A stretch of DNA of 64,000 nt from Paludibacteraceae bacterium (GTDB taxonomy: Bacteria; Bacteroidota; Bacteroidia; Bacteroidales; Paludibacteraceae), in NCBI GenBank assembly GCA_017444065.1, contig JAFSXJ010000018.1, forward strand, positions 1,778-65,777. The letters are read 5' to 3'. The notes under the pieces are model-generated. The model saw only the letters and a program-made list of their open reading frames with translations. It was not told where the DNA came from and did not search any database. Below, piece after piece: positions 36,209 through 55,626 of the stretch. Both the position numbers and the translations under genes were made by a program. The first letter of the stretch is position 1. Every line of letters starts with the position of its first letter.

Positions 36209-38053
36209 ATGCCTGACCACAGACAAAATACTATCTTCCGGTTTGCGATTGTCTTTCTGCTGATAACAGCGGGCTTTGTGGCTGTGCTGGTGCATATCAT
36301 GCGCATCCAGTGGTTCCAGCGCGACATATGGATGCAGATGGTGAAGACGCAGAAGCCCGTTGAGAAAGTCATTGACCCGCAGCGCGGAAATATCCTCGAC
36401 TGCGAGGGACGTCTGCTCGCCAGCAGTATCCCCGGATACTACGTATATATGGACACCCGTGTGCCGGCGCTTCACCAAGGCGGCGATACGCTGTTCTACC
36501 GGTATGTGGACAGCATAGCCATCGGACTGAACCGTATCCTGCCCGAGAAGACTGCCGCCGAGTACCGCGCGATGATGGTCAAATCGTTCAACAAACGCAA
36601 CGGCAAGAACGCCAAAGGCCAGCAACGCGAGAACGGCACCTACCTCAAGCTCTGCCCGCACCGCGTATCGTTCATCCAGAAGCGAGAGATAGAAAAGCTT
36701 CCGCTCTTCCGCCGCGGCTACTATAAGTCGGGCATTCAGTTTGTTGACGCACCGCAACGCAAGAAACCTTTCGAATCGTTGGCTTCGCGTACCATAGGCA
36801 GCATTCTCGCCAACGGCAAAGGCAATGCCGGACTGGAAAAGACTTTCGAGACCGACCTGCACGGCATTGACGGTTTGTCGTTGCGCGAACGCATGGGCGG
36901 GCAATGGCAGTACGTGCCGGTGAAGGAGGCTGTCAACGGCTACGATCTGGTCACCACGCTTGACGCCAACCTGCTGGACATAACGGAGACGGCGCTCCGC
37001 AGTTGCCTGGAGCGCACACAGGCGGACTGGGGATGCTGCATACTGATGGAAGTACAATCCGGCAAGATTCGCGCCATCTGTAACCTCGACCGCAACACCG
37101 ACGGCACCTACAGCGAGAAAGCCAACCACGCAGTGACGCGCGTTGAGCCCGGCTCCACATTCAAGACCATAGCGATGATGGCGGCACTGGATGACGGCAA
37201 GGCGGAGCTGACGGACACCTTTCAGGTGTATTATAACGGTTGGACATACCACGACGCCCTACACCGCGACGCGCACCCCAGGGATACAGTCTATACCCTG
37301 CGTAGTGCACTGGCGGTATCGTCGAACATTGCATTCGCCAAACTGATTACCCAAAGCTACGACAAGAAAGCCTCGAAGTTCGTGGACAAACTCCAGAGCA
37401 TGGGTATTCGCGACAGCGTCTATTCGGAGATTCCCGGCGCACAGAAGCCACGTATCGATATTCCCAACGATGCCGTGACCCTATCGCGTATGGCGTACGG
37501 CTACTCGGTGGAACTTACTCCCATGCAGATACTCACGTTCTATAATGGCATAGCCAACGACGGCAGAATGATACGCCCGTATCTGGTTGAGCGAGTCATG
37601 GACGGCGACGAGGTCATCCGCACCTTTGATACCGAGACACTCAAGAGCAGCATGTGCCGTAACAGCACACTCCGCGACATACGACAGTCCTTGCACGATG
37701 TGGTGTGGGACAATAATCTCGGCACAGCATCCGTGCGTACGTGGGCAGGCAAGGTGGCGGACTACAAGGCGCAATCGAAACGTGTGCACATTGCCGGCAA
37801 GACCGGTACGGCACAACTCTTCCGCAACGGACGTTACCAATCGCGCGAACACCGCATGACCTTTGTCGGCTACTTCCCTGAAGAGAAGCCGCAATACACA
37901 TGCCTGTGCATGGTCGAGTTCCCGAAGACCTACGGCTACGATGCCGGTTATGATTGCGGCGGTGTGGTCCGACAGATTGCCGAGAAGACCATTGTCTATA
38001 CCGGACACTACGTTATCAAAGGCGACAGCCTCGTTTACGAGAAAAACAAATAA
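36209..38053 (+). CDS. ftsI: penicillin-binding protein, class B transpeptidase (FtsI/PBP3-like)
   Basis: N-terminal TM anchor, SxxK (GSTFKTI), SxN (VSSNIAF) and KTG (GKTGTAQ). Confidence 0.9.
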   Translation: MPDHRQNTIFRFAIVFLLITAGFVAVLVHIMRIQWFQRDIWMQMVKTQKPVEKVIDPQRGNILDCEGRLLASSIPGYYVYMDTRVPALHQGGDTLFYRYVDSIAIGLNRILPEKTAAEYRAMMVKSFNKRNGKNAKGQQRENGTYLKLCPHRVSFIQKREIEKLPLFRRGYYKSGIQFVDAPQRKKPFESLASRTIGSILANGKGNAGLEKTFETDLHGIDGLSLRERMGGQWQYVPVKEAVNGYDLVTTLDANLLDITETALRSCLERTQADWGCCILMEVQSGKIRAICNLDRNTDGTYSEKANHAVTRVEPGSTFKTIAMMAALDDGKAELTDTFQVYYNGWTYHDALHRDAHPRDTVYTLRSALAVSSNIAFAKLITQSYDKKASKFVDKLQSMGIRDSVYSEIPGAQKPRIDIPNDAVTLSRMAYGYSVELTPMQILTFYNGIANDGRMIRPYLVERVMDGDEVIRTFDTETLKSSMCRNSTLRDIRQSLHDVVWDNNLGTASVRTWAGKVADYKAQSKRVHIAGKTGTAQLFRNGRYQSREHRMTFVGYFPEEKPQYTCLCMVEFPKTYGYDAGYDCGGVVRQIAEKTIVYTGHYVIKGDSLVYEKNK

Positions 38054-38091: not shown

Positions 38092-39546
38092 ATGATACTA
38101 TCTGATTTATTAACTGCCATCGAGCCACTACGCGTCATTGGGCGCACGGACATTGACGTTCACGCCATCCAATTCGACTCACGCAAGGTCGAAGCCGGTG
38201 ACCTCTTCGTCGCACAAGCCGGTACGGCTGTTGACGGGCACACATTCATCCCTTCCTGTATAGAGAAAGGTGCTCGTGTCATCGTCCTCGACAACCCCGA
38301 CTACCTGCCTCAGCAGCCGTCCGCCGATGTGACCTGCGTGCTCGTCAAGAGTTCCGAGGAAGCACTCGGCCGCCTTGCCCATCATTGGTACGGTCGCCCG
38401 AGCGAGCACTTGACGCTGGTCGGCGTCACCGGCACCAACGGCAAGACCACCATCGCCACGCTGCTGTATAATATGGTGCGTGCCATGGGGCACAAGGCAG
38501 GATTGCTCTCCACCGTCGTCTATTATGTGGACGGTCAGGCGTTCCCTTCCACGCACACCACACCCGACGCTCTTGCGCTCAACGCCCTGCTGGCGCAGAT
38601 GGTTGAGGCAGGCTGCGAGTACGCGTTCATGGAGGTCAGCAGCCACTCGATAGCGCAGGAGCGTATAGCCGGACTGCAGTTCGCCGGAGCGATGTTCACC
38701 AATCTTACGCGTGACCATATCGACTACCACAAGACCTTCGACAACTACCGCGACACGAAGAAGCGCCTCTTCGACAACCTCGGCAAGAACGCCTTTGCCG
38801 TCACCAATGCCGATGACAAGAACGGCCTCGTCATGACGCAGAACACCCGCGCGAAGGTCTATACCTACTCTACGCAGACGATGGCGGACCACCGCGGCAA
38901 GATATTGGAGGAGGGTTTTGACGGCATGCTGCTCAGCATCGACGGGCAGGAGGTGTTTGTGCCGCTCGTCGGACGGTTCAATGTCAGCAACCTGCTGTGC
39001 ATCTACAGCGCCGCTTTGTGTCTGGGCTTTGACAAGCTCGAAGTCCTGCGCGTACTCAGTGCCCTCAAACCCGTCAACGGACGCTTTGAGACCATCCGCT
39101 CGCCCAAAGGCTGGACGGCGATTGTCGATTATGCCCACACGCCCGATGCAGTGGATAATGTCATCCAGACCATCCGTGAGATAAAGAAAGCCACAAACAA
39201 GCTGATAACGGTTGTCGGCTGCGGCGGCAACCGCGACAAAGGCAAACGCCCGATGATGGCGCAGATCGCCAAGCGCGGCAGCGAGCAGCTCATCCTCACC
39301 TCTGACAACCCCCGTGACGAAGAGCCGCGCGACATCCTCAGCGACATGACTGCCGGTCTGACCGAAGACGAGCTCCGCAGCACCCTTGTGATAGAGGACC
39401 GTGCTGCGGCTATCCAGACCGCCTGCACCCTGGCGCAGTCCGGCGATGTCATCCTCGTTGCCGGCAAGGGGCATGAGGACTACCAGATCATCAAAGGCGT
39501 GAAGCACCACTTCGACGATCACGAGCAAGTACGCAAGTACATCTGA
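38092..39546 (+). CDS. murE: UDP-N-acetylmuramoyl-L-alanyl-D-glutamate--2,6-diaminopimelate ligase
   Basis: GVTGTNGKTT P-loop, the DNPR motif (LTSDNPRDEEP), and the dcw position after the PBP gene. Confidence 0.9.
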   Translation: MILSDLLTAIEPLRVIGRTDIDVHAIQFDSRKVEAGDLFVAQAGTAVDGHTFIPSCIEKGARVIVLDNPDYLPQQPSADVTCVLVKSSEEALGRLAHHWYGRPSEHLTLVGVTGTNGKTTIATLLYNMVRAMGHKAGLLSTVVYYVDGQAFPSTHTTPDALALNALLAQMVEAGCEYAFMEVSSHSIAQERIAGLQFAGAMFTNLTRDHIDYHKTFDNYRDTKKRLFDNLGKNAFAVTNADDKNGLVMTQNTRAKVYTYSTQTMADHRGKILEEGFDGMLLSIDGQEVFVPLVGRFNVSNLLCIYSAALCLGFDKLEVLRVLSALKPVNGRFETIRSPKGWTAIVDYAHTPDAVDNVIQTIREIKKATNKLITVVGCGGNRDKGKRPMMAQIAKRGSEQLILTSDNPRDEEPRDILSDMTAGLTEDELRSTLVIEDRAAAIQTACTLAQSGDVILVAGKGHEDYQIIKGVKHHFDDHEQVRKYI

Positions 39547-39648
39547 TTGACGTCGGGGCAACCGTCCCCGAATCGTATACCCTTGCTATACCTTTAGGTT
39601 CTCCCACCGACCGATGACCGGGAGACGATTGAACAAAACACAGGAGTT

Positions 39649-40854
39649 ATGACAGATATTGAGAAGAATAATCAGGACATTATCCCGTTGTCCCAAGCAG
39701 TTGAAGCGATTAAAACCGCTATTCTGCAAGGGCAGTATGAAGCCAATAAAGGTGTCAACCGCATCCAGTTGGCTGTCTATTTTGCTATTGGCAAATATCT
39801 CTCCAAGAACACACGCAACTTGGAATATGGTGCCGGTGCCATCAAGGCTATCAGCGACAAAATACATAAAGACCTACCCGGTTTGCGTGGCTATTCGGCT
39901 AGTAACCTCAAAAATATGCGTCGTTTCTATGAAGAGTGGATATTATTAGATGCTGAAAATCAAAACATTCAACAATCGCCAATCGCAATTGGCGAATCTT
40001 CTCAAGAATCGACAATCGCGGTTGGCGATTTACAAGACACACAAAATCAGATAGATATATATCGCGCTATCTGTGTGCCCAATATCACAGAATTTCCTGT
40101 AGATGATTTCTTTGCTGTGCCTTTCACCCATCATATCCGGATCATCGAGAAGACCAAAGACCTTGAGGCACGTTACTACTATATCCATCGCACGGCCGTA
40201 GAAAAACTCTCTGTTGATGCGCTTGAGAGATTAATCAGGCAGCAGGCTTACGAGAAACGGGAGCAGATACCGAATAATTTCCGCCAAACGCTATCCGGTT
40301 CGGCACTGGCACGCAAGGCGGTAATGATGTTCAAGGATTCATACCAATTGGACTTCATCAATACGGAGCAGATTGGAGAACGCGACAAACAGGATGTGGA
40401 TGAAAAAGAGGTGGAACAGCAGATTATTCATAATATCAAGCAGTTCATCATGACGTTCGGGCAGGATTTCACCTTTGTCGGCAATCAGTACCATCTGGAG
40501 ATTTACGGAGAGGACTTCTTCCCTGATTTGATTTTCTTCAACCGCGAACTGAATGCGTTAGTGGTCGTAGAACTGAAGATCGGTGAATTCAAACCGAGTT
40601 ATTTGGGCACCCTGACGGCTTACCTTCAGATTCTGGATACTAAGGTGCGCAAGCCGCACGAGAACCCGTCTATCGGTATCGTCCTCTGCAAATCGGCTAA
40701 TAAGCAGTTTGTTGAATTTGTTATTCAAAAATTCGACAGCCCGATGGGAGTAGCCACTTATACGACAGCCGCCGATATGCCCGAAGAACTCCGCAAAGCT
40801 CTGCCCGACATGGACGAACTGAAACGTATCATGGCAAAAGAAGGCGAAAAATAG
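39649..40854 (+). CDS. DUF1016/YhcG-family PD-(D/E)xK nuclease domain protein
   Basis: 401 aa. The C-terminal PDLIFFNRELNALVVVELKIGEF is a D...ELK nuclease motif. The N-terminal helical domain is typical of YhcG-like proteins. Confidence 0.75.
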   Translation: MTDIEKNNQDIIPLSQAVEAIKTAILQGQYEANKGVNRIQLAVYFAIGKYLSKNTRNLEYGAGAIKAISDKIHKDLPGLRGYSASNLKNMRRFYEEWILLDAENQNIQQSPIAIGESSQESTIAVGDLQDTQNQIDIYRAICVPNITEFPVDDFFAVPFTHHIRIIEKTKDLEARYYYIHRTAVEKLSVDALERLIRQQAYEKREQIPNNFRQTLSGSALARKAVMMFKDSYQLDFINTEQIGERDKQDVDEKEVEQQIIHNIKQFIMTFGQDFTFVGNQYHLEIYGEDFFPDLIFFNRELNALVVVELKIGEFKPSYLGTLTAYLQILDTKVRKPHENPSIGIVLCKSANKQFVEFVIQKFDSPMGVATYTTAADMPEELRKALPDMDELKRIMAKEGEK

Positions 40855-40885
40855 GTTTTGAAATAATCGTTCCAAAGGACAAGAA

Positions 40886-40995
40886 CACTTGTGTTTGCCA
40901 TTTGAATATTGCAATATCGCGGAAAAAGAAAGAATCTGAGATGTTCCTTGGAGCCTGTGACAAGATATAGCACTATGTTGCGGTAATTTTGCAAG
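40886..40995. repeat. ~110-bp direct repeat R1, copy 1 (upstream of the KilA-N gene; contains TAATTTTG at 40984-40991)
   Basis: Aligns with 42097-42205. The 24-mer GTGACAAGATATAGCACTATGTTG is identical in both copies. Confidence 0.8.
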
Positions 40996-41074
40996 TGATT
41001 TCCCGAGACGGGTGATTGGCAGAGGAGCAAATGAAGATAAAGTGGTCGAATTTGACCACATAAATGATAAAGCT

Positions 41075-41899
41075 ATGGCGGTAAGAAAGATTAACATTGA
41101 TGAGTCGGAGATTTCCGTTATCTTCGGCATGCACGATGATGATTATATCTGCTTGACCGATATGGTCAAAGCAGGAGATAATAGCGATCGGACTAATATA
41201 GTTATTCAGAACTGGATGCGTCGCAAGGATACTATCTCATATCTAGGCGTGTGGGAAAATCTGCATAATCCGAATTTTAAAAGCATCGAATTCGATGCAA
41301 TTAGAAATGCATCCGGTACTAACCGTTTTATTCTTACAGCTAAAGAATGGATTGAGCGAACCAATGCAATCGGTATTATTGCTAAAAGTGGACGCTATGG
41401 AGGCACGTATGCCCATAAGGACATTGCGTATCACTTTGGAATGTGGCTTTCCCCGGAATTCAACCTGCTTGTTGTTAAAGAGTTCCAACGGCTGAAAGAG
41501 GAAGAGCAGAAGGCACTTGGCTGGTCAGCAAAGCGTGAGTTGGCTAAGATCAACTATCATATCCATACGGACGCCATCAAAGCCAATCTTGTGCCGCAGG
41601 AGATTGATACATACCACCGTTCGCTTATCTATGCCAACGAAGCCGATGTACTCAATGTGGCGTTGTTCGGAATGACAGCCAAAGAGTGGCGTGACGCGCA
41701 TCCGGATGACAAAGGCAATATCCGCGATTACGCGACCATCAATCAGTTGATTTGCTTGAGTAACATGGAGAACCTGAATGCGGTCTTTATCAACGAAGGC
41801 ATGCCGCAACAGGAACGCCTGCACAAACTCAACCAGATTGCCATTCAGCAAATGACAGTGTTGGAGAATGTTGAATCAAGGAAAATCTTAAACGCATAA
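41075..41899 (+). CDS. KilA-N domain-containing protein
   Basis: ICLTDMVKAG...IQNWMRRKDTISYLGVWE...GGTYAHKDIAYHFGMWLSPEF is typical KilA-N. Start moved to ATG 41075 (MAVRKINIDE); the track start at 41012 is non-ATG and lies immediately after repeat R1. Confidence 0.75.
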   Translation: MAVRKINIDESEISVIFGMHDDDYICLTDMVKAGDNSDRTNIVIQNWMRRKDTISYLGVWENLHNPNFKSIEFDAIRNASGTNRFILTAKEWIERTNAIGIIAKSGRYGGTYAHKDIAYHFGMWLSPEFNLLVVKEFQRLKEEEQKALGWSAKRELAKINYHIHTDAIKANLVPQEIDTYHRSLIYANEADVLNVALFGMTAKEWRDAHPDDKGNIRDYATINQLICLSNMENLNAVFINEGMPQQERLHKLNQIAIQQMTVLENVESRKILNA

Positions 41900-42096
41900 A
41901 TACGCGAACAAAACCAAGCGAAAGAAAAGGTGCTAAAGAAAAAATAAACAAAGCGGCATCGTCAAATAGAGTAAAAGTAATCAAAAAAAAATAGAGTAAA
42001 CCCTACGATTAGCCCGACGAGGATTTGGAAAGAGCCTGACAGGGATAGGCAAACAGCCATCAAATAGAGAGTGAAAGGACGATGCGAGAGATGACA

Positions 42097-42205
42097 CACT
42101 TGTTTGCTATTTGCATGTTACAATATTGAGGAAAAAGAAACAATAAAAGATGTTTTTGGGGGATAGTGACAAGATATAGCACTATGTTGTTGTAATTTTG
42201 CATTG
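42097..42205. repeat. ~110-bp direct repeat R1, copy 2 (upstream of the GNAT-fusion gene; contains TAATTTTG at 42193-42200)
   Basis: See copy 1. About 80% identity by hand alignment, with one 1-nt gap. Confidence 0.8.
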
Positions 42206-42298
42206 AGAAATAAAAAAAGCACGGACATTAGTAAAAAAATCTAATTAGTTTCGCATATTATACATACCATAGCACAAAATAATGCAGAATAAATTACA

Positions 42299-43372
42299 AT
42301 GAATATGGATAATCTTACATTAAAACCGTTTTCGGGAATCGAATTGAAAGACCATTTCTTCGATTCATTGCGGGACAATTATGAAGGCTTTGATAAGTGG
42401 TTCCAGAGCAAAGCGCAATCAGGCGCAAAAGCTCTTGTATACTACGACAATTCATTGCTAAAGGATTTCCTATATCTGAAAGATGAAAACGAAGAGTTGC
42501 AATTAGATGGAAAAACATTACCTGCACAAAAGCGACTTAAAGTCGGGACCTTCAAGATTGAGCGCAGAGGCACTAATCGGGGAGAACGCTTTATGAAACG
42601 GATTCTTGACGTCGCGATTCAATACGGCTTTCCGGAAATTTATGTAACTATGTTTGATGACACAGACGAGTTAATGCATTTGCGCCATTTCTTTGAAACA
42701 TATGGTTTTTCTGAAATCGGTAGGAAATCACATCCCAATGGACGTAGTGAGAGCGTGCTCCTTCGAGACATGACAAAACACATAGGCAATATTGTTACTA
42801 ACTATCCGTTCGTTAATATGCTATCTGGCAACAAATATCTACTTTCAATAAAGCCGGAGTTTCATACTAAATTGTTTCCGGATTCTATTCTGCAAACAGA
42901 GCGATATAGTATTCTGCAAGATGTTAGCCCTACCAATAGTATTAACAAGATTTATATATGTTGGATGCATGGCGTGCAAAGTTTGAAGCCACTTGATAAA
43001 GTGATTATTTACAGGACTTCTGACGGAAAGGGGTATGCCATATACCGAAGTGTCGCCACATCTGTATGCACGGTCTCTGAAGTTAAAACGGTAAATGATT
43101 TTACTGATATTGACGATTTTATACGATATGTCAACAAGTATAGTGTATTTAAAGAGCATGACTTGCGATACTGGTACAATGTTAAGCCAAATTTTGTCGT
43201 AATAAAGATGCTATATAACATTGCATTTCAAAAGAAAGTTATTCGGAAAGACATAATAGAGCAAGCAGGTATACCATCAGATGCATACTGGGGCTTCCAA
43301 CAACTAAATAATGAACAATTTAATCAACTGTTAACTTTAGGTAACGCAGATGGACGCTATATTGTCAATTAA
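42299..43372 (+). CDS. GNAT-like acetyltransferase fused to a C-terminal ASCH/PUA-like domain
   Basis: The N-terminal ~165 aa has a GNAT core pattern (KVGTFKIERRGTNRGERFMKRILDVAIQYGFPEIYVTMF...LRHFFETYGFSEIG). The C-terminal ~190 aa starts YLLSIKPEFHTKLF, echoing the ILSIKPVYANQIL start of the downstream ASCH protein. Confidence 0.55.
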   Translation: MNMDNLTLKPFSGIELKDHFFDSLRDNYEGFDKWFQSKAQSGAKALVYYDNSLLKDFLYLKDENEELQLDGKTLPAQKRLKVGTFKIERRGTNRGERFMKRILDVAIQYGFPEIYVTMFDDTDELMHLRHFFETYGFSEIGRKSHPNGRSESVLLRDMTKHIGNIVTNYPFVNMLSGNKYLLSIKPEFHTKLFPDSILQTERYSILQDVSPTNSINKIYICWMHGVQSLKPLDKVIIYRTSDGKGYAIYRSVATSVCTVSEVKTVNDFTDIDDFIRYVNKYSVFKEHDLRYWYNVKPNFVVIKMLYNIAFQKKVIRKDIIEQAGIPSDAYWGFQQLNNEQFNQLLTLGNADGRYIVN

Positions 43373-43733
43373 ACCCGTTTATGCCAATCAGATATTGGCA
43401 GGGACGAAGAAAGTTGAATTTCGCAAGCGGAGATTCAAAGAGGATGTACGTAGAGTGTATATCTATTCCTCTATGCCGGTTAAGCAGATTGTGGGGTATT
43501 TTACTTTTTCCACAATCGACGAAGACACTCCCGCCAATTTGTGGAATAAATACAAAGAGATTGGCGGTATAGCTCATGATGATTTCTTTGGCTATTATGC
43601 GAATAATGTTTCCGGATGTGCGCTGGTTATAAAATCAGTCACCTCATTCAAGAAAGGTAAGAGCCCGAATGATTTTATAGATGATTTTGTTCCTCCGCAA
43701 TCTTATGTTTATTTAGATACGACTGCAGATTGA
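43350..43733 (+). CDS. ASCH domain protein
   Basis: 127 aa. MDAILSIKPVYANQILAGTKKVEFRKRRF is a classic ASCH N-terminus. Overlaps the upstream gene by 23 nt. Confidence 0.7.
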   Translation: MDAILSIKPVYANQILAGTKKVEFRKRRFKEDVRRVYIYSSMPVKQIVGYFTFSTIDEDTPANLWNKYKEIGGIAHDDFFGYYANNVSGCALVIKSVTSFKKGKSPNDFIDDFVPPQSYVYLDTTAD

Positions 43734-43795
43734 CGAACGAAGCTAAAAGAAGCGGAAGAAAAAGAAATATATGAAACACATAATATAAAAGTAGT

Positions 43796-44596
43796 ATGGA
43801 AGATGAAAAAGAAATAGCAAAAGTTGCACTGCCTGAATTATTCAAAGGGGGAATGCAGGTTGTGTCTCAATTTTATAAAGATTTAGCACAACCAACAATA
43901 CAAACCATTGGCAAGACTTTGAATACCACTTTTGAGTTTGCTACAATTCCAGCATTAGCATTAGGATTTGCAACAGAGAAAGTCCGATTGAATTTTGCTA
44001 AAAGGCTTGAAGAGTACAAGAAAAAACTTGACAAAGTCCCAGAAGAAGATAGATGTGTTGTGGAGCCAGAGATAGGAGAGCCTATTATTCGTAATTTGAT
44101 GAATACTACTAATAATCAAATTGCAGATTTATTCACGACCTTATTAACTAATGCCTCGAATATCAAAACGCTGGATAAAGCCCATCCTAAATTTGCACAG
44201 ATAGTCTTAAATCTAACTCCAGACGAAGCAAAAATAATCCAATATTTACAAGACAAAGACGAGGTTTATTATGTAGATTTTAGAGGAAAATTTGAAAAAG
44301 GAGATGGTTTTTATACTTGGGAGTCGTATGTGACAATATTGCCTGATGAAATTAAATTTGATTACTCCGAAAATTGCAATGCGTATATATCGAACTTGAT
44401 TAGTTTGGGTATATTATTAGATAAGTCAGGAACATTCAAAATGAATGATACTATATACAAAAAAATTGAGAGTATCCATAAACCAAGATTGGAAAAACAA
44501 TTAGTTCCTAATATGTTTACCAAAATTACTACAAAAAGGAGTTATTTGCAAGTAACAGATTTCGGACGATTGTTTATTGATGCTTGCATATCATGA
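43796..44596 (+). CDS. Abi-alpha (DUF4393) abortive-infection-like protein
   Basis: YKDLAQPTIQTIGKTL, KKLDKVPEEDRCVVEPEIGEPIIRNL, DLFTTLLTNAS, HPKFAQIVLNLTPDEAKIIQYL. Matches the Abi-alpha pattern as I remember it. Confidence 0.6.
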   Translation: MEDEKEIAKVALPELFKGGMQVVSQFYKDLAQPTIQTIGKTLNTTFEFATIPALALGFATEKVRLNFAKRLEEYKKKLDKVPEEDRCVVEPEIGEPIIRNLMNTTNNQIADLFTTLLTNASNIKTLDKAHPKFAQIVLNLTPDEAKIIQYLQDKDEVYYVDFRGKFEKGDGFYTWESYVTILPDEIKFDYSENCNAYISNLISLGILLDKSGTFKMNDTIYKKIESIHKPRLEKQLVPNMFTKITTKRSYLQVTDFGRLFIDACIS

Positions 44597-44632
44597 TATA
44601 ATATTATCCACGACAAATAATAAAAATAGCAT

Positions 44633-46750
44633 ATGACTTTCACAGAAGCCAAACAAAGATTTGACAGCCAATTTGGCACAGCAACCGAGTTTACTGATTT
44701 TTTGCCGGAACATTTGACATTGGGTAAGAAAACAGGACTCCGTAAGACCAATGGAACGAAGAACGAGCAGTACTATAAATGGCAGTGCCTTTCTGCCATA
44801 GTAGATGCCGGTTTGTTTCCAAAAGACCTTATGGGTACAGAGGTGCATTTTCCGAAAGGTAACAAGTCTTCCGCTGCTCTCAAATTGGATGCCGCTGTTT
44901 TTGACGATGCTTCATGGTTTGACCATTACCAAGACTATCACACCAACAATAATGCAGAGGCTCTTGATTGGCTCCGCAAACATCTTGTTGTTGCTATGGA
45001 GTTTAAGAAAGAGGACAACAAGAATATTGCAGAAGTTTGGGACAAGCAACTTAAAGCCTATATGAAAGAGTCGGAAGCGGCTTTCTGTTTGGGCATCCTA
45101 TATGATACCGAACGCCTTTATCTATTTCGCAAATACAAAGGTAAACTCCTAAGATATAGCGAAGAGTATAATATGAAAGGCGAAGATAGCGGAACTAAAG
45201 AGTTATCGCTACATCTCCCAGATCCGTATAGAAACATTCCAACCCTTGAATATATACTAACTTATGAAGAAAGCAAGCAAATAGATAGAAGTCGCAGGGG
45301 AATTGTAAAATTGGATGTTATCTCCGGCTTGCAATCTACACAAATTAGCGATGCCATGTCAGCTATTTTGCGCACGTTGGATAAGATGGGTATGGTTAAT
45401 CAAAAAGGATTTGAAATTCTCATACAGATATTGTCATTAAAGATTTTCGATGAAAAACGGAATGAACGGAATTACCACCGAACTTTAGATTTCTATTTAT
45501 CCGAAAAGGAAAAGTCTTTTAACTCATTAGCAGATGCCGGTGTCCAATCTTTGATAACACGTATAAAAAATCTACTTCATGAAGCAAGTGGTGATTATTA
45601 TCGCATCCTATCTAATAATACGCTTGATTTCCGAAATGAGAAACATATCCATGTGCTGATTGAGGTTATAAAGCAATTCCAAGATTATTCTTTCGTGCGT
45701 TCACAGAAAACGGACTTATATCAGATGGTGTTCTATAAATTTGCAGGAGAGTTTGCCAAAGACCAACATGCACAATTTGTTACGCCCCTTCCGATGATTG
45801 AATTTCTTGTTAATATTGTCAATCCTCGAAACGGAGAAAGTGTCATCGATCCAACAGTTGGAATAGCAGACTTTCTTTCTGTTTCCTACGTCAATTCCAA
45901 CAGCAAGTTAGATGACAAAAATATCTTCGGTATGGATATTGACGAGCAGATGGTAATGCTTGCTACATTAAATATGCTGCTCAATGGTGACGGAAATGCC
46001 AAGATTATTGCTCAGGTGGATGGATATGGCTCATTACTGACAAAATTTGATAAAACGGGAGAACCTATTCAGTTAGTGCCGAGTACTAACAAAAATGGTA
46101 ATTGGGATAACCGTCCGGATAATAAAGAACTTAAGAAGTTTGACGTTGTTCTTACTAATCCGCCTTTTGGCGAGGATCGTGCTTTTGTTCCTGCAAACGA
46201 TCAGGCCAAAGAGATTATACAATGCTATGAGCTGTGGAATCAATACGGGCAAGGCAAGATAGACTTGGGCATCGCTTTCTTGGAAAACGCATACCATATT
46301 CTTAAAGAAAACGGGCGAATGGGTATCGTGTTGTCTAATTCTATTGCAAGTATTGACTCACACCAAATAGCTCGTAAGTGGATGATGGATAAGATGCGAA
46401 TTGTGGCACTTTTCGATATGCCGGCTAATGTGTTTGCAGAAACAGGAGTAAACACCACGATTATTGTTGCCTATAAGCCTAAACCGGCAGAACTAAAGCG
46501 GTTGAAAGAAAAAGGATATGAGATTTTTGTGCGTGATATTCATAAAGTCGGCTACGAAGTCAAGACAAGCAAACGCGTTAAGTACTTTGCTCCCACCTAC
46601 AAAATCAACTATGAGACATTTGAAACAGAAATTGACAAAGAAGGAAATCCTGTTATAGATGAGGATTTTACTTCAACAGTTGCTGATTTCAAACAGTGGT
46701 GTTTGCGCCAAGAGAAAACATTACAGGATTTATTCATTAAGGCAAAATAA
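44633..46750 (+). CDS. N6-adenine DNA methyltransferase with an N-terminal PD-(D/E)xK (HSDR_N-like) nuclease domain; BcgI-A-like type IIB/IIG R-M subunit
   Basis: Candidate nuclease motif LKLDAAVFDD ... VVAMEFKKED. Gamma-class MTase motifs: FVTPLPMIEFLVNIV, VIDPTVGIADFL (motif I) and LTNPPFG (motif IV). Confidence 0.65.
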   Translation: MTFTEAKQRFDSQFGTATEFTDFLPEHLTLGKKTGLRKTNGTKNEQYYKWQCLSAIVDAGLFPKDLMGTEVHFPKGNKSSAALKLDAAVFDDASWFDHYQDYHTNNNAEALDWLRKHLVVAMEFKKEDNKNIAEVWDKQLKAYMKESEAAFCLGILYDTERLYLFRKYKGKLLRYSEEYNMKGEDSGTKELSLHLPDPYRNIPTLEYILTYEESKQIDRSRRGIVKLDVISGLQSTQISDAMSAILRTLDKMGMVNQKGFEILIQILSLKIFDEKRNERNYHRTLDFYLSEKEKSFNSLADAGVQSLITRIKNLLHEASGDYYRILSNNTLDFRNEKHIHVLIEVIKQFQDYSFVRSQKTDLYQMVFYKFAGEFAKDQHAQFVTPLPMIEFLVNIVNPRNGESVIDPTVGIADFLSVSYVNSNSKLDDKNIFGMDIDEQMVMLATLNMLLNGDGNAKIIAQVDGYGSLLTKFDKTGEPIQLVPSTNKNGNWDNRPDNKELKKFDVVLTNPPFGEDRAFVPANDQAKEIIQCYELWNQYGQGKIDLGIAFLENAYHILKENGRMGIVLSNSIASIDSHQIARKWMMDKMRIVALFDMPANVFAETGVNTTIIVAYKPKPAELKRLKEKGYEIFVRDIHKVGYEVKTSKRVKYFAPTYKINYETFETEIDKEGNPVIDEDFTSTVADFKQWCLRQEKTLQDLFIKAK

Positions 46751-46753
46751 GGT

Positions 46754-48244
46754 ATGAACAGATACGTACGTACTCCTGACGCCGTTTCATATAATGAGGT
46801 AGTTAACAGCCAATATAAGCTGTCATCTTCCTTATTCCTGAAATTGGTCATGCCCAATGCCAATAGTAAAAAACTTGCAGATTTCTTGTCTCGCAAATTA
46901 AATAGAACTGATTTGGGCGTAGAAGTCGGATCTTTAAGCTATATTGATAAATCCCCAAAATATTTTTTGCGGACGAAAGCATTACAAGACTATTCGTACA
47001 TTCCGGAACTTACTTCGGAAACAATGCTACCAATATTGCCGAAGGATTTTGTAAACATGCATTTGAGAAAGGGCGATGTCGTTATTTCAAAGGACAGCAA
47101 TATTGGAGAAGTTGTTATCTTGGAAAAAGATTATCCTGATTGTATGCTGTCGGGAGCCTTATATAAACTGCCGCTTAAAGAAGAATGGAAATATTATTTG
47201 TTGGCGTTTATTAAGCATGATATTTTTAGAGAACAATTAAATGCAATTGTGCCTAAAGGTGCTACTATAAGACATGCCAAAACACTATTTCTTGATTGCG
47301 TGATTCCGCTTCCAAATAATAATGCAGAGAATGTAATAAAATACGTCTCAATATTAACGGAAGCAATTATTAATAAGCAAGTCCTCATAAAACAACGCCA
47401 CGCAGAAATACTACGTTTGATAGATGAAGAATTGTACAATAATCAAAAAGAGGCAACATTTACATATCAACTACCGACGTTGAAAGATTTGCAGGAAGTT
47501 GGAAGATTAGATACAGGCTTATATTCTTCTGTTTTTAAAGAAAGTATTAATTTGATACATTCATATTCGGGGGGATATAAAAACAACATTTATGCATTAG
47601 GTTATAAACTGAATCGCGGACAAAATTTGCAAGAATCTAATATCGGAAAAAGTATATATTCTGATAAAAGTCATGACCATTTTTATACTTTGGCGTTACC
47701 TACTTATTTTTCAGAATATGGTACGATTAATAAAACAATATATTTGGGTAACCCAAACAAATTAAAAACTTTATCACAAGGAGAGATTGTTTTTGGTGCG
47801 GAAGCGACATTTAGAGGATTTGTTGTTTGTGATAAAAAAGACAAATGCATTACAAATATACATGGCATAACTATTTCAAATAATGGTAATCTTATCCAAA
47901 GTATATTTGTGAAAAGTTTTTTAGACTATCTAGTAAGACGCGGAGTAATTGATGCTGTAAAAGTTGGTGGTCATGGTGGTAGTTTTGCTCAAAAATATTG
48001 GGATATTATACCTTTTCCGAATTTCCCAGAAAGCAAGCAGAAAGAGATAGCTGCTTTATATCATAATCCGCAAGAATATCAATCAAGCGATTGCACGCTT
48101 GCTAACTTCCTCGTATATGACGATTCCTATAATTCCACTGCCGGTATCTATGAACTTGACAAGACAGCGAAACATTTTCAGCAACTCCTCAGCCAAGCAA
48201 TTGATGATATTGTAAACGACCGAGAAGTAGTGATTAGATTATAA
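46754..48244 (+). CDS. restriction-modification specificity (S) subunit with two target-recognition domains
   Basis: 3 nt after the MTase gene. Two halves each end in a conserved S-subunit-like block (CVIPLPNNNAENVIKYVSILTEAIINKQ and IIPFPNFPESKQKEIAALY) followed by helical spacers. Confidence 0.6.
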   Translation: MNRYVRTPDAVSYNEVVNSQYKLSSSLFLKLVMPNANSKKLADFLSRKLNRTDLGVEVGSLSYIDKSPKYFLRTKALQDYSYIPELTSETMLPILPKDFVNMHLRKGDVVISKDSNIGEVVILEKDYPDCMLSGALYKLPLKEEWKYYLLAFIKHDIFREQLNAIVPKGATIRHAKTLFLDCVIPLPNNNAENVIKYVSILTEAIINKQVLIKQRHAEILRLIDEELYNNQKEATFTYQLPTLKDLQEVGRLDTGLYSSVFKESINLIHSYSGGYKNNIYALGYKLNRGQNLQESNIGKSIYSDKSHDHFYTLALPTYFSEYGTINKTIYLGNPNKLKTLSQGEIVFGAEATFRGFVVCDKKDKCITNIHGITISNNGNLIQSIFVKSFLDYLVRRGVIDAVKVGGHGGSFAQKYWDIIPFPNFPESKQKEIAALYHNPQEYQSSDCTLANFLVYDDSYNSTAGIYELDKTAKHFQQLLSQAIDDIVNDREVVIRL

Positions 48245-48247
48245 GTT

Positions 48248-49180
48248 ATGGACTTTTATAGTAAGAATAGTTATTCTTTAGATGATATAAAGTACCTTAT
48301 AAATAATGAGGTTGAAGAAAATATACACCTTGATTATAAGGCTGCTGGGGCATTGGCAAAGGATGACAAGAAACGCGTGGAAATCACTAAAGATGTTTCG
48401 GCATTTGCCAATTCAGATGGTGGCATTATTGTTTATGGTATTGCAGAATATGACCACAGACCCAAAGAGATAAGTCCCATAGATGGCCGAATATATACTA
48501 AAGAATGGTTGGAAAATGTCATACACCTAATTCAGCCGAGAATAGAGGGGCTAAAAATATATCCTATAAGAATTGGTGATTTAGAGAAATCAATATATAT
48601 CGTGCAAATACCAAAGAGCGATAGTGCTCCGCACATGGCGAATAATCATTGTTACTATGGGCGTAAAAATTTTCAATCACTTCCGTTAAAAGATTATGAA
48701 GTTAAAGAATTGTATAATCGAGTGTCTATCCCAAAACTATTGATTGATAATTGTGCGTTCTATGTGGAGGAAGAAAATCGAGATACAATAACATATCATT
48801 TAGCGGCAGCAGTAATTAATCATGGAAAACGCGCATGTGAGTCATATAAATTTAACTTTTATATTAATAATGCTCAATATTGCGATATATCATATAGGAC
48901 TTTAGAAGAGAAGAACGCTTATACCCTTTTGGAGCACAATAGAATTAAACTTAGTTCTTGTTCGCAAGCGCCAATATATCCCACAGAACATTTAGATATG
49001 GGACATTTCCGTATAACTGTCAAAAAAAGATATAAAGAATTGTTCCTGTATAATCTTGTAATAGAACTGATGCTTTTTTATGGAAGTGAAAAGGAGAACT
49101 TGGCTTTTGTCCCTTTAACAGGAGAATTCATAGAAGAACGCGATAAAATTACCAAATTACTTATGGAAAAGGATTTGTGA
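48248..49180 (+). CDS. AlbA_2 (Schlafen-like putative DNA-binding) domain protein with an unknown C-terminal domain
   Basis: EENIHLDYKAAGAL...ITKDVSAFANSDGGIIVYGI...IYIVQIPKSDSAPH matches the AlbA_2 pattern. The C-terminal ~150 aa is unassigned. Confidence 0.55.
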   Translation: MDFYSKNSYSLDDIKYLINNEVEENIHLDYKAAGALAKDDKKRVEITKDVSAFANSDGGIIVYGIAEYDHRPKEISPIDGRIYTKEWLENVIHLIQPRIEGLKIYPIRIGDLEKSIYIVQIPKSDSAPHMANNHCYYGRKNFQSLPLKDYEVKELYNRVSIPKLLIDNCAFYVEEENRDTITYHLAAAVINHGKRACESYKFNFYINNAQYCDISYRTLEEKNAYTLLEHNRIKLSSCSQAPIYPTEHLDMGHFRITVKKRYKELFLYNLVIELMLFYGSEKENLAFVPLTGEFIEERDKITKLLMEKDL

Positions 49181-50013
49181 TTATGGGCAAAACAGTTACA
49201 ACATATTTGATTGACGGAGATCCGAAAGGGACTCAGTATGTGTTTGTCAGCAATAAGATTTGCCAGATGTATGTAATTCCGCGTTCAAACCTTTCTATTT
49301 TGAATGAGCGACAAGAGTTGCAGACACCGGCATTTTATATTCTGCTTGGTGAAGATGAAGCTACTAAGCCCAAAGCATATATCGGAGAGACCGAGAATTT
49401 CCGCGAGCGAGTAAAAGACCACGACAGCAAGAAAGCGTTTTGGCAAAAGGCGTTGCTGTTTATTTCCAAAGACGCAGCAATGACCAAAGCTGATGTGCAA
49501 TACTTGGAGCATCGAGCCATTGCGGAAGCGAAGGTCTCGAATACGTTTGTGCTGAATGAGAATAAGCAGACACCTAAAGCCCCCAATCTTCCCGAGTATA
49601 GAAAGGATGATATGGAAGGATTCTTTGAAGATGTGAAATTTCTCACATCGTTCATCGGTTGCAATATCTTTGATATGGTCAAACCGAAAAATGAACATTT
49701 ATTTTATACAAAGGGGCGTGGCTGTGATGCGAAGGGCTTTTATAACTCCAATGGATTTACCGTTTTGAAAGGCAGTATTGTTGCCGATTCGTCTGTTCCA
49801 TCGTTTACATGGAAAGAGAAAAGGAAGCGTCTAATCAAAGATTACACTATTAATGATAGTGGTAAATTGGTCTTGGAATCAGATAAAACATTCTCCAGCC
49901 CGAGCACTGCAGCGGATTTCTGCATAGGCAGCAGTAATAATGGCTGGCTTGTATGGAAGGACCAAGACGGTCAGACTTTGGATGCAGTATATAGAAAACA
50001 GTTAGAAGAATAA
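49177..50013 (+). CDS. GIY-YIG nuclease with a C-terminal DUF4357 domain
   Basis: FYILLGEDEATKPKAYIGETENFRERVKDH (GIY-YIG core) and the C-terminal FSSPSTAADFCIGSSNNGWLVWKDQDGQTL (DUF4357 signature). GTG 49177 overlaps the upstream TGA; an alternative ATG is at 49183. Confidence 0.7.
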   Translation: MIMGKTVTTYLIDGDPKGTQYVFVSNKICQMYVIPRSNLSILNERQELQTPAFYILLGEDEATKPKAYIGETENFRERVKDHDSKKAFWQKALLFISKDAAMTKADVQYLEHRAIAEAKVSNTFVLNENKQTPKAPNLPEYRKDDMEGFFEDVKFLTSFIGCNIFDMVKPKNEHLFYTKGRGCDAKGFYNSNGFTVLKGSIVADSSVPSFTWKEKRKRLIKDYTINDSGKLVLESDKTFSSPSTAADFCIGSSNNGWLVWKDQDGQTLDAVYRKQLEE

Positions 50014-50079
50014 ATAAAGCGCCCCCTCTCTGCTTTCAATCGAGCCAATAATCCAAACAGAAAGAGAAAGCAGAAACAG
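50014..50079. repeat. ~65-bp direct repeat r, copy 1 (immediately after the GIY-YIG stop codon)
   Basis: ATAAAGCGccCcCTCTcTGCTTtCAA...CAATAATCCAAACAGAAaGA... aligns with 55561-55626. Confidence 0.7.
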
Positions 50080-50124
50080 TATTGCAGAAAATAGAAATAT
50101 TAACATCATAAATAGAATGATAAG

Positions 50125-51134
50125 ATGAACTCGAGTGAACAATCAAAAGGAGAGATTGTAATTTACCAGGCAGAAGATGGAAAGGTCGCGATAGATGTTG
50201 TCCTTTCTGATGAAACAGTATGGGTAACACAGGAACAGATGTCTCTTCTATTCGGTAAAGCAACATCAACCATCAACGAACATATTAAGAATATTTTTGC
50301 GGAAGGAGAACTTGAAAAAGAAAAGGTCACACACAAATTCGGGATTTCCGAATTTATGCACAAAGCGCCATATTACTATAATCTTGACGTAATTATTTCT
50401 GTCGGTTATCATGTTCATTCTGTGCAGGGTACACGTTTCCGCCAGTGGGCGACTCAACGAATTCGCGAGTATATATTAAAAGGGTATACACTTGATGACG
50501 AAAGGTTAAAAGGTAATGGCGGACGATACTTCCGTGAACTGCTCCAGCGAATTCGTGACATACGCAGCAGTGAGCGTAATATGTATCAGCAGGTGACGGA
50601 TATATATGCTACAGCCATTGATTATGACCCGAAGGCTGAAATTACGCGCCAGTTCTTTGCTACTATTCAGAACAAGATGCACTATGCAGCTCATGAACAT
50701 ACTGCTGCTGAAGTCGTTTATGACCGAGTGGACAACGAAAAACCCATGCTCGGTATGACCAATTTTAAGGGGAACTATATCACGAAAGATGATATTATCA
50801 TTGCGAAGACTATTTAACAGAAGTGGAGTTGCAGCGTCTTAATCTGCTTGTTTCGCAATTCTTCGATTATGCTGAATTGCAGGCAATGGAGGCACATCCG
50901 ATGACGATGCATGAATGGATAGAAGAGTTGGACAGAGTGTTGCAGAACAACTGCCGTCCGATATTGTCCGGCAGTGGTTCTATCAGCCATCAGCAAGCAC
51001 TTGAAAAAGCGGAACAGGAGTACACCACTTATCGTCAGCGGGAACTGAGTCTGTTGGAATCGGATTACGACCGTGCCGTACGACAATTATCTTTGTTTAG
51101 TGGCGCAAATGACCAACTGACAGGAGAGAAATAA
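50125..51134 (+). pseudogene. rhuM: RhuM-family virulence/Fic-associated protein gene, disrupted by a 1-nt frameshift
   Basis: ORFs 50125-50817 (IVIYQAEDGKVAIDVVLSDETVWVTQEQMSLLFGKATSTINEHIKNIFAEGEL) and 50823-51134 are the N- and C-terminal parts of one RhuM-like protein. Shifting frame near 50803-50808 (gcgaagac) restores ...IIIAK-DYLTEVELQRLNLLVSQF... Confidence 0.7.
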
Positions 51135-51190
51135 AAAAACTTGCATTTTGAGTGATAGATTTTGACATCGTTCATACACATATATAGCAC

Positions 51191-51991
51191 ATGAAAATAT
51201 CGCAATCACCACATATCCAGTTTGTCAGTGACATGCACTTGGAGTTTGCAGAGAACCGCGCGTACCTCAAGAATCATCCGTTGGAAGTGACGGGTGACGT
51301 TCTGCTGGTGGCAGGCGATTCGGCGTATTTGGATTTGCCGGAGTCCGGACAAGACACATACGTGCAGTATAAGTTTTGGGACTGGGCAAGTGAGCATTAC
51401 AAACAAGTCATCGTGTGTCTTGGCAACCATGATTTCTACGGCTACTATGATTTGGCTACCATGCCGGACGGTTATTGCAAGGAAATCCGCCGCAATGTGC
51501 ATGCCTATTACAATTCGGTTGTACGTTTGCAGGATATAGACATCATTGTTTCTACATTATGGGCACATATAGAGCCGTTTAATGCTTATCAAACGGAGAA
51601 AGGCGTCAGTGACTTTTATCGGATTATGTACAATGGTCATCGCCTGACGGCTGATGATTTCAATAATGAGCATGAACGTTGTTTGGACTTCATTACAACG
51701 GCAGTAAAAGAGAGCAAGGCACGGACCAAAATCGTTCTCACTCACCATGTGCCGACGCAGTTTTGCACTGCAGCAGAATTTATCGGCAGTATAATCAACG
51801 GTGCTTTTACGGTTGAGTTGGGCAAGTATATTGCTGATTCGGGTATCGATTATTGGATTTACGGACACTCGCATCGTAATATTGATGCTCAAATTGGTGA
51901 TACGCAAATACTCTCTAATCAATTGGGGTATATTTCGCATGGAGAGCATATCCGCAACGGCTTTAATCCTTCAAGATATTTGGAAATATAA
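51191..51991 (+). CDS. calcineurin-like metallophosphoesterase
   Basis: FVSDMHLE, LLVAGDSAY, LGNHDFYG and GHSH motifs. Confidence 0.8.
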   Translation: MKISQSPHIQFVSDMHLEFAENRAYLKNHPLEVTGDVLLVAGDSAYLDLPESGQDTYVQYKFWDWASEHYKQVIVCLGNHDFYGYYDLATMPDGYCKEIRRNVHAYYNSVVRLQDIDIIVSTLWAHIEPFNAYQTEKGVSDFYRIMYNGHRLTADDFNNEHERCLDFITTAVKESKARTKIVLTHHVPTQFCTAAEFIGSIINGAFTVELGKYIADSGIDYWIYGHSHRNIDAQIGDTQILSNQLGYISHGEHIRNGFNPSRYLEI

Positions 51992-52022
51992 AACCAACAG
52001 AGAAGAATAGAAAACACTGAAT

Positions 52023-52523
52023 ATGGCACAGCGTTTACAAATACGTAAAGCGACGATGGTGGACATTCCGCGGATCATCAACTTGCTGCATCAGGTGAAC
52101 ATGGTGCATCATCAGTTACGTCCCGACCTGTTCAAGCCGCACACGACCAAGTACAATGACAAGGAACTGGCTGCCATGATGGAGACAGAACAGCAACCTA
52201 TATTCGTGTTTGATGACGGCACGGTGTCGGGCTATGTGTTCTGTCAGATTCAGGAAGTACGGGATGACCTGCTTCTGCAAGACCGCAAGACATTGTATAT
52301 TGATGACCTGTGCGTTGACGAGACAGCCCGCGGAAAGCATATCGGACGGCAGCTGTTCGACTATGTGCGTGAGTATGCTCTGACTATTGGATGTCATGCC
52401 ATTACACTCAATGTTTGGGAAGGCAACGATACAGCTCTGCGTTTCTACCAGAATATCGGCATGCAGGTGCAAAAAACATCCATGGAGTTAAAACTAAATG
52501 AACTCCACATAAAAACAAAATAG
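52023..52523 (+). CDS. GNAT family N-acetyltransferase
   Basis: 166 aa. LYIDDLCVDETARGKHIGRQLFDYVREYA...ITLNVWEGNDTALRFYQNIGM. Confidence 0.8.
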   Translation: MAQRLQIRKATMVDIPRIINLLHQVNMVHHQLRPDLFKPHTTKYNDKELAAMMETEQQPIFVFDDGTVSGYVFCQIQEVRDDLLLQDRKTLYIDDLCVDETARGKHIGRQLFDYVREYALTIGCHAITLNVWEGNDTALRFYQNIGMQVQKTSMELKLNELHIKTK

Positions 52524-52527
52524 AACT

Positions 52528-52638
52528 ATGGCAAACGAATCTATCATAAAACTGTTCGAGGACAAGAAAATACGTATTGTCTGGAACGAAGAGAAAGAGC
52601 AAGAACAGCATGGAGATACTGACAGACAGTTTGCATAA
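52528..52638 (+). pseudogene. truncated N-terminal fragment of a Bro-N/DinD-like gene (36-codon remnant)
   Basis: Hand translation: MANESIIKLFEDKKIRIVWNEEKEQ then unrelated EQHGDTDRQFA*. The first 25 aa resemble N-termini of Bacteroidales Bro-N-type proteins (..FE..KIR.VWD.EKE.WYFS..). The remnant runs into the start of the next gene in another frame. Confidence 0.4.
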
Positions 52639-55564: not shown

Positions 55565-55626
55565 AGCGGACACTCTCCGCTTCCAAAGGAACAATAATCC
55601 AAACAGAACGAACAGAAAGAAAACAA
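55561..55626. repeat. ~65-bp direct repeat r, copy 2 (immediately after the ydiJ-like stop, upstream of mraY)
   Basis: ATAAAGCGgaCaCTCTcCGCTTcCAA...CAATAATCCAAACAGAAcGA...; see 50014-50079. Confidence 0.7.
55564..55582 (+). terminator. hairpin after the ydiJ-like gene
   Basis: AAGCGGA-cactc-TCCGCTT, a perfect 7-bp stem. The corresponding part of repeat copy 1 is degenerate. Confidence 0.4.

Follow-up and report, generated by a model that had tools for sequence, protein, structure and literature searches.

The locus described here raises two questions: what is done by a gene that appears to join an acetyltransferase to a nucleic-acid reader domain and runs into the gene of a stand-alone ASCH protein, and is such a pair new? 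The two genes lie in a stretch of 64,000 nucleotides from a Paludibacteraceae bacterium, the whole of which is called the window below. An earlier note on this DNA had read them as a candidate toxin-antitoxin or defence pair with an architecture that it did not recognise from any named system.

Two overlapping genes in a low-GC island

Gene 1 (42299..43372) is an open reading frame of 357 aa encoding the GNAT-EVE fusion (PDC-M11A or GevT-like), and gene 2 (43350..43733, 127 aa) encodes the stand-alone ASCH protein (PDC-M11B or GevA-like); these genes and all other features given here are on the forward (+) strand. The two reading frames share 23 nt, ATGGACGCTATATTGTCAATTAA (43350..43372), in which the TAA stop codon of gene 1 spans the Ile-Lys codons of the conserved SIKP motif of gene 2. 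This overlap, already noted at first reading, was confirmed by the reading frames and the shared sequence, and it suggests that translation of the two genes is coupled. Only the start of gene 1 was corrected. In a 72-sequence alignment M3 is the first residue in 97% of the homologues, and a 100%-identical database protein (P0001) has 355 aa, which makes the ATG at 42305 the probable true start, for a product of 355 aa.

Both genes are held in a low-GC stretch between about 39.6 and 52 kb (0.32-0.45, against ~0.55 in the flanks). A tentative promoter element, TAATTTTG (42193..42200), is found ~100 nt upstream of gene 1 within a 400-nt AT-rich spacer, and fits the Bacteroidetes -7 promoter motif, TAnnTTTG. 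As a promoter it is weak evidence, because TAnnTTTG is common in the AT-rich island, and the window as a whole holds 49 copies where 32 +/- 5.5 would be expected. A scan for sigma-70 promoters and terminators, which is uninformative for Bacteroidetes, gave counts at chance expectation.

Folds and conserved residues of the two proteins

The N-terminal half of gene 1 (residues 1-165, 42299..42793) was assigned as a GNAT acetyltransferase domain, in agreement with the earlier note, from the Pfam matches of its homologues and from profile, Foldseek and PHROG comparisons. Pfam gave no match on the window protein itself; Acetyltransf_1 matches 15 of the 72 homologues, with a best E-value of 6.8e-9. 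The 'acetyltransferase' PHROG 13728 matches residues 9-138 at 3.7e-22, and PHROG 6345 matches gene 1 at 4.8e-128. When a profile of the N-half was compared with PDB sequences, PaiA (1tiq, 2.3e-4) and Naa50 (1.6e-3) were found, and a partial motif A of gene 1, R90-G91-T92-N93-R94-G95, aligns with the QKHGLG acetyl-CoA loop of PaiA. An AlphaFold model of gene 1 built on the alignment (pLDDT 94.2, pTM 0.91) retrieved from the PDB, by Foldseek, the GNATs SbzI, PaiA, Naa10/50 and Ard1 (E ~4e-6), so that an acetyltransferase fold was indeed found. PaiA, SbzI and Naa10/50 are the nearest GNATs to gene 1, and its 100%-identical NCBI protein, from a Paludibacteraceae MAG, is labelled 'N-acetyltransferase'. 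Invariant positions of the domain in the 72-sequence alignment are W34, E63, K81, K86, Y115, G136 and E151. The helices of the acceptor site are highly conserved, which suggests that the enzyme is active.

The C-terminal half (residues 166-357, 42794..43369) is predicted, from Foldseek and conservation, to be a PUA-like domain of EVE/ASCH type that reads nucleic acids or modified bases. Its conserved residues are P170, H189, N213, K217, Y219, D233, Y238 and R239, and it does not carry the GxKxxExR motif. Pfam EVE (PF01878) matches 2 of the 72 homologues (best 1.6e-4) and the window protein has no Pfam match; a profile of the C-half against PDB sequences likewise found nothing meaningful. In the full gene 1 model this half resembles ZmASCH, with a TM score of 0.73-0.78 normalised to ZmASCH. 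Modelled alone (pLDDT 88.3), it again has ZmASCH as its best PDB match (TM 0.74), followed by the EVE proteins 2ar1, THYN1 (5j3e) and 1zce, then by the N-domain of McrB (5e-4) and, more weakly, by YqfB. The THYN1 structure 5j3e is bound to 5mC DNA. As modelled, the C-half thus has a PUA-like fold between the ASCH and EVE classes, and its sub-class is ambiguous because ZmASCH (1.3e-6) outranks the EVE proteins (2e-5 to 8e-5).

The match to ZmASCH bears out the ASCH-like character that had been ascribed to this half. It had also been said to mirror gene 2, starting from a similar 'LSIKP' segment. At the level of the fold this likeness is real, since both the C-half and gene 2 resemble ZmASCH, but as sequence homology it is not significant: the probability that hhalign assigned to the two was no higher than 3-6%, and we rejected a relation by sequence.

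Gene 2 is an ASCH protein, as had been proposed. It matches ZmASCH (5GUS) over its full length with an E-value of 2.6e-10, and ZmASCH is its nearest studied relative. Against Pfam ASCH the protein reaches 20.2 bits, narrowly missing the cut-off of 21.2, and it has no other Pfam match; several homologues carry a precomputed PF04266 match. The ASCH octapeptide of the GKER class, G18-T-K20-K-V-E23-F-R25 (43401..43424), was located in an alignment of 37 homologues, in all of which G18, K20, E23 and R25 (GxKxxExR) are invariant. The residues Y47, K53 and S128, which bind nucleic acid in the cleft of ZmASCH, correspond to Y39, K45 and S118 in gene 2.

Linkage, spread and context of the pair

The family of gene 1 is large: when a library clustered at 50% identity was searched, 1,290 representative clusters matched at E<=1e-3. 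Co-occurrence with the ASCH gene was surveyed in the window and related loci, gathered by single-protein scans, and the ASCH gene was present in 79/79. It lies directly downstream on the same strand in 78 of them and is convergent in the remaining one (L079). The loci are mainly close or redundant relatives and are not independent samples, because many are near-identical E. coli prophages. The pairing of gene 1 with the ASCH gene is far beyond chance.

The overlap is kept as well. Among the 78 tandem pairs, 58 overlap by 23 nt and 19 by 29 nt; 14 of these 19, all from Bacteroidales, have an extra upstream ATG and an internal ATG that still gives 23, and the other 5 have their stop codon displaced by 6 nt downstream. 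In the remaining pair (L045) gene 1 is cut short at its end, and 148 nt separate it from the ASCH gene. A 23-nt overlap is also annotated in E. coli PhiR47_2, Salmonella SopEPhi, Lactobacillus Lj965 and the archaeal virus psiM100.

The family thus spans bacteria and an archaeal virus. Relatives of the pair occur in prophages and viral contigs, and tblastn found homologues in 16 phage records. The E. coli version is present in 275 of 5,426 complete genomes (5%) and is always chromosomal. In the lambdoid phage PhiR47_2 the pair directly follows cI, which we take to be the position of rexAB in lambda, and in the P2-like SopEPhi it stands between a homologue of replication gene A and the portal gene. 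In the E. coli, Salmonella and Lactobacillus prophages there are no restriction-modification (RM) genes next to it. GNAT-EVE and ASCH pairs ride on prophages and also, as in the window, on defence islands.

In the Bacteroidales defence island of the window, methyltransferase and specificity genes lie directly downstream of the pair. Its neighbours include DUF1016/YhcG, KilA-N, Abi_alpha, a methyltransferase and an S subunit, and further Schlafen/AlbA_2, GIY-YIG-DUF4357 and RhuM. Of the related Bacteroidales loci sampled, 5/6 likewise have RM or defence genes beside the pair, encoding methyltransferases, type I-like or PLD-type restriction proteins, or Ppl/mad3-like proteins. Downstream of the pair, genes of methyltransferase, specificity-subunit or restriction type are present in the window and in five other loci (L002, L005, L007, L015 and L016). 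Close Bacteroidales relatives keep the pair only, and not the Abi_alpha, methyltransferase and specificity genes found downstream in the window. Since nothing but the pair is kept among these relatives, it stands as a self-contained cassette rather than at the head of a fixed operon. The earlier placing of the pair at the head of a defence operon holds insofar as the genes downstream are usually RM or defence genes, but those genes vary among close relatives, and a conserved operon in which gene 1 precedes Abi_alpha and the methyltransferase was rejected for the same variation.

Several architectural variants were found. The GNAT-EVE protein is preceded by a TIR domain in one (P0214), by PIN in two (P0261, L087) and by DUF4365 in another (L084). 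Two more join the ASCH domain itself to the chain, as ASCH-PIN-GNAT-EVE (P0275) and PIN-GNAT-EVE-ASCH (P0279), and in both the octapeptide is kept. Swappable effector-type heads, here TIR, PIN and DUF4365, are typical of defence systems. The covalent ASCH-GNAT-EVE fusions tie the two proteins together functionally, and are a poor fit with an antitoxin that is freely degraded.

Proposed function of the pair and comparison with known systems

Taken together, these observations lead us to read the window pair as a member of a GNAT-EVE and ASCH family that acts as a toxin-antitoxin-like cassette, in which an acetyl mark made by the first protein would be kept in check by the ASCH protein. We give this reading a probability of roughly 55%. 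According to it, the reader domain would direct the GNAT domain to its substrate in nucleic acid, be it tRNA, aminoacyl-tRNA or a nucleobase; the GNAT domain would acetylate this substrate with acetyl-CoA, and growth would stop. The co-translated ASCH protein would restrain GNAT-EVE, most likely because it hydrolyses the acetyl mark or itself occupies the nucleic acid concerned. The balance between the two proteins may then be upset when a phage infects the cell, resulting in abortive infection or superinfection exclusion. In favour of this reading are the matches to PDC-M11 and the identity to GevT/GevA that are described below, the folds, the invariance of the motif, the linkage in 79/79 loci, the fusions and the defence context. 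Against it are the weak activity of ZmASCH, the covalent fusions of ASCH to the toxin, and the preference for a DNA-binding or regulatory role in the passages of Bell, Wolf and Koonin 2020 (PMC7641849) that deal with these proteins.

ASCH proteins remove ac4C from tRNA, and in TthASCH, EOLA1 and TRIP4 the K and E of the octapeptide are essential for this removal (bioRxiv 10.64898/2026.02.27.708502). The invariance of G18, K20, E23 and R25 in gene 2, with K and E being catalytic in the ASCH deacetylases, gives some support, at the level of sequence, to the idea of gene 2 as an eraser. With this in mind one may tentatively consider, as possible, a reversible acetyl-mark system, where GNAT-EVE writes an N-acetyl mark (for example ac4C-like) and the ASCH protein erases it as an amidohydrolase. 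Either RNA or DNA could bear the mark, with the reader domain of gene 1 selecting the sites. The system would be an acetylation counterpart of DarTG for abortive infection, and the TIR, PIN and DUF4365 heads would supply it with additional effectors.

ZmASCH itself was first reported as a Mg-dependent ssRNA ribonuclease. It does not act on free ac4C, its effect in vivo is not significant, and its removal of ac4C is confined to purified tRNA in vitro. This activity, weak or absent outside purified tRNA, speaks for a classical type II module, in which the ASCH protein binds the GNAT-EVE toxin directly or represses the operon, with no enzymatic reversal. Such a module is somewhat unlikely. The tight coupling over 23 nt fits the stoichiometric complex that it calls for, and in the passages of Bell et al. 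2020 (PMC7641849) on these operons it is suggested that the ASCH protein binds DNA and may regulate, with HTH-ASCH fusions being reported. However, a pure binding partner would not need the octapeptide, and the invariance of its catalytic-type G, K, E and R in 37 homologues, together with their retention in the fused variants, therefore counts against pure binding.

The ribonuclease activity of ZmASCH, which gene 2 could share through its conserved cleft residues, also allows the roles to be reversed or divided: the ASCH protein would be an RNA-cleaving effector, GNAT-EVE a sensor or regulator, and the variant heads the effectors, a role that their position on the GNAT-EVE protein would suit. 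We consider this unlikely, since the GNAT-EVE protein is the one named as toxin in GenBank PV340567.1 and the conservation of the GNAT acceptor-site helices suggests an active enzyme. Orphan ASCH genes without such a partner, like that of ZmASCH, also exist, and an ASCH protein is therefore evidently tolerated alone.

It is similarly doubtful that the pair is an RM accessory or epigenetic conflict module, whose reader would see modified DNA and whose GNAT domain would acetylate a DNA base, acting together with the RM genes beside it or, when carried by a phage, countering the RM of the host. Both of these proposals are reported in the relevant passages of Bell et al. 2020 (PMC7641849), where the acetylation of a DNA base is attributed to Iyer et al. 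2013. The likeness of the C-half to DNA-bound THYN1 and to the McrB N-domain would agree with such a module, as would the RM-type genes that follow the pair in the window and five other loci. Yet these genes differ in type and are not conserved with the pair, which in the prophages of E. coli, Salmonella and Lactobacillus has none beside it. A housekeeping pair that writes and erases ac4C in RNA with no role in conflict, conceivable because ASCH proteins do remove ac4C from tRNA, is very improbable given the low-GC island among defence genes, the relatives in prophages and viral contigs and the patchy distribution in E. coli, and the known ac4C writers are TmcA/NAT10-type enzymes, not members of the gene 1 family.

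Returning to the reading as a toxin-antitoxin-like cassette, the locus in the window matters little in itself, since it adds a further copy to a candidate system that is already catalogued. The GNAT-EVE and ASCH family is nevertheless worth experiments, as it is large (1,290 clusters) and found in 5% of complete E. coli genomes. Should the ASCH partner prove to erase the mark enzymatically, ac4C deacetylation, a chemistry newly reported for ASCH proteins, would be tied to phage defence through this family.

The architecture has in fact been described and catalogued already, so the statement that it is unrecognised was wrong. Gene 1 matches PDLC04418 of PADLOC (PDC-M11A) at 1.7e-127 over residues 5-357, and gene 2 matches PDLC04425 (PDC-M11B) at 1.6e-46 over residues 1-125. 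Both window proteins fit the candidate PDC-M11 (A+B) of PADLOC-DB v2 at full length, with no difference in sequence that would set them apart. To our knowledge, the PDC entries of PADLOC are candidates without experimental validation.

In their passages on EVE domains, Bell, Wolf and Koonin 2020 (PMC7641849) treat '(PIN)-GNAT-EVE' fusions as an EVE cluster of their own, crediting the first description to Iyer et al. 2013. There, almost all of the operons are said to encode an ASCH protein, for which a DNA-binding or regulatory role is favoured, and often an AAA_17 ATPase, and they are predicted to be toxin-antitoxin systems in virus-host conflict. The fusion, the ASCH gene and the prophage and defence contexts are the same in our loci, and the AAA_17 gene is also present in two of them (L079 and L085). 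PIN-less GNAT-EVE is described in these passages as not associated with RM systems, whereas the PIN-less copy in the window and its close relatives precede RM genes, a slight departure. PIN is also the sole N-terminal fusion that the passages name, and TIR and DUF4365 versions were found here.

In the GenBank record PV340567.1 (Escherichia phage PhiR47_2) a protein of 357 aa is labelled 'GevT toxin' and one of 125 aa 'GevA antitoxin'; gene 1 is 42% identical to the former and gene 2 37% to the latter, and the 23-nt overlap is the same. This pair is prophage-borne beside cI in E. coli, and its toxin and antitoxin roles are stated in the GenBank record alone. Literature searches found neither a publication behind the name GevTA nor an experimental paper on the GNAT-EVE and ASCH system, and a 2025 review of RM mentions ASCH and EVE in general terms only; nor did the literature searched yield a mechanism for the family. 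The reading of the two genes as a candidate toxin-antitoxin or defence pair agrees with PDC-M11, with the Bell et al. passages (PMC7641849) and with the GevT/GevA labels, while the supposed lack of any named match is contradicted by the same three.

The type II systems of GNAT and RHH proteins (TacAT, AtaRT, KacAT, ItaRT) have in common with the window pair a GNAT-fold toxin in a two-gene module, and both may plausibly work by acetylating aminoacyl-tRNA. They differ in that the partner in the window is an ASCH protein and not RHH/DUF1778, and in that gene 1 adds a reader domain. Structures of TacT/AtaT type were absent from the best 50 Foldseek matches and from 20 profile matches to PDB sequences. 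Membership of the TacT/AtaT toxin family was accordingly rejected, on the partner as well as on the absence of such toxins from these structural and profile matches.

DarTG is composed of an ADP-ribosyltransferase and a macrodomain. It may offer an analogy, its toxin modifying nucleic acid and its antitoxin removing the mark enzymatically, although the folds are unrelated to those of the window pair. For gene 2, the ASCH ac4C amidohydrolases YqfB and TthASCH were compared alongside ZmASCH (5GUS/5GUQ), which has in common with it the fold, the GKER octapeptide and the cleft residues. ZmASCH was considered as a possible operon partner of a GNAT-EVE protein and rejected as such, the gene upstream of it encoding an unrelated secreted protein with no match to the gene 1 profile. 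ZmASCH is thus an orphan gene.

Position of the island within the cell-division cluster

The dcw (cell-division) cluster of the window is interrupted at 39600-55600 by the low-GC defence island, which is accompanied there by two further genes, one for a metallophosphoesterase and one for an FAD-oxidase/Fe-S protein. The island is preceded by ftsI (36209-38053) and then murE (38092-39546), and followed by mraY (55640-56911) and murD (56914-58323). Neither tRNA genes nor an integrase were seen in the window between 38 and 56 kb.

Genes downstream of the GNAT-EVE/ASCH pair

The pair is followed, after 62 nt, by an Abi_alpha gene (43796-44596; PF14337 at 5.4e-38, PDC-S47 at 4.2e-84), which is not conserved alongside it in relatives. 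The closely spaced genes at 44633-50013 form an RM-like module encoding a 705-aa N6 methyltransferase (top PADLOC match mad2), a 496-aa S-subunit-like protein (weak mad5 match), a Schlafen/AlbA_2 protein and a GIY-YIG + DUF4357/RAMA protein (PDC-S14). An HsdR-type subunit is absent from this module, and the GIY-YIG protein could be its nuclease. In the RhuM-family gene that follows (PDC-S05, 50125-51134), a stop codon separates two ORFs, at 50125-50817 and 50823-51134, covering profile positions 18-169 and 176-248, respectively. Either pseudogene formation or an error in the assembly probably accounts for the split.

The ASCH protein and related loci elsewhere

Gene 2, the ASCH gene of the pair (43350-43733), aligns at 5.6e-10 with positions 192-296 of the NCBIfam profile PRK12279, titled '50S ribosomal protein L22/unknown domain fusion protein'. 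Some organisms therefore have ASCH domains of the gene 2 type joined to ribosomal protein L22.

In the Lactobacillus prophage Lj965 (locus L010, 3313-5408), the GNAT-EVE/ASCH pair comes directly after four phage genes for tRNAs (Ser, Glu, Tyr and Phe), an arrangement that could be of interest if the toxin acts on tRNA. Another related locus (L085, 3354-4917) carries an ASCH gene with 52% identity to gene 2, followed by an AAA_17 gene, and has no GNAT-EVE gene; the other strand encodes only a PIN fragment of 145 aa. The locus may be a decayed PIN-GNAT-EVE locus.

N-terminal variants of GNAT-EVE

Many close homologues of gene 1 (~58% identity; P0070-P0118, 443-451 aa, for example P0082) bear an N-terminal extension of ~90 aa, for which Pfam gives no match. 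Other GNAT-EVE proteins carry a TIR domain (TIR-GNAT-EVE, homologue P0214) or DUF4365 (DUF4365-GNAT-EVE, locus L084, 2316-3995) at the N-terminus. In the passages of Bell 2020 (PMC7641849) consulted, the only N-terminal fusion partner named for GNAT-EVE is PIN.
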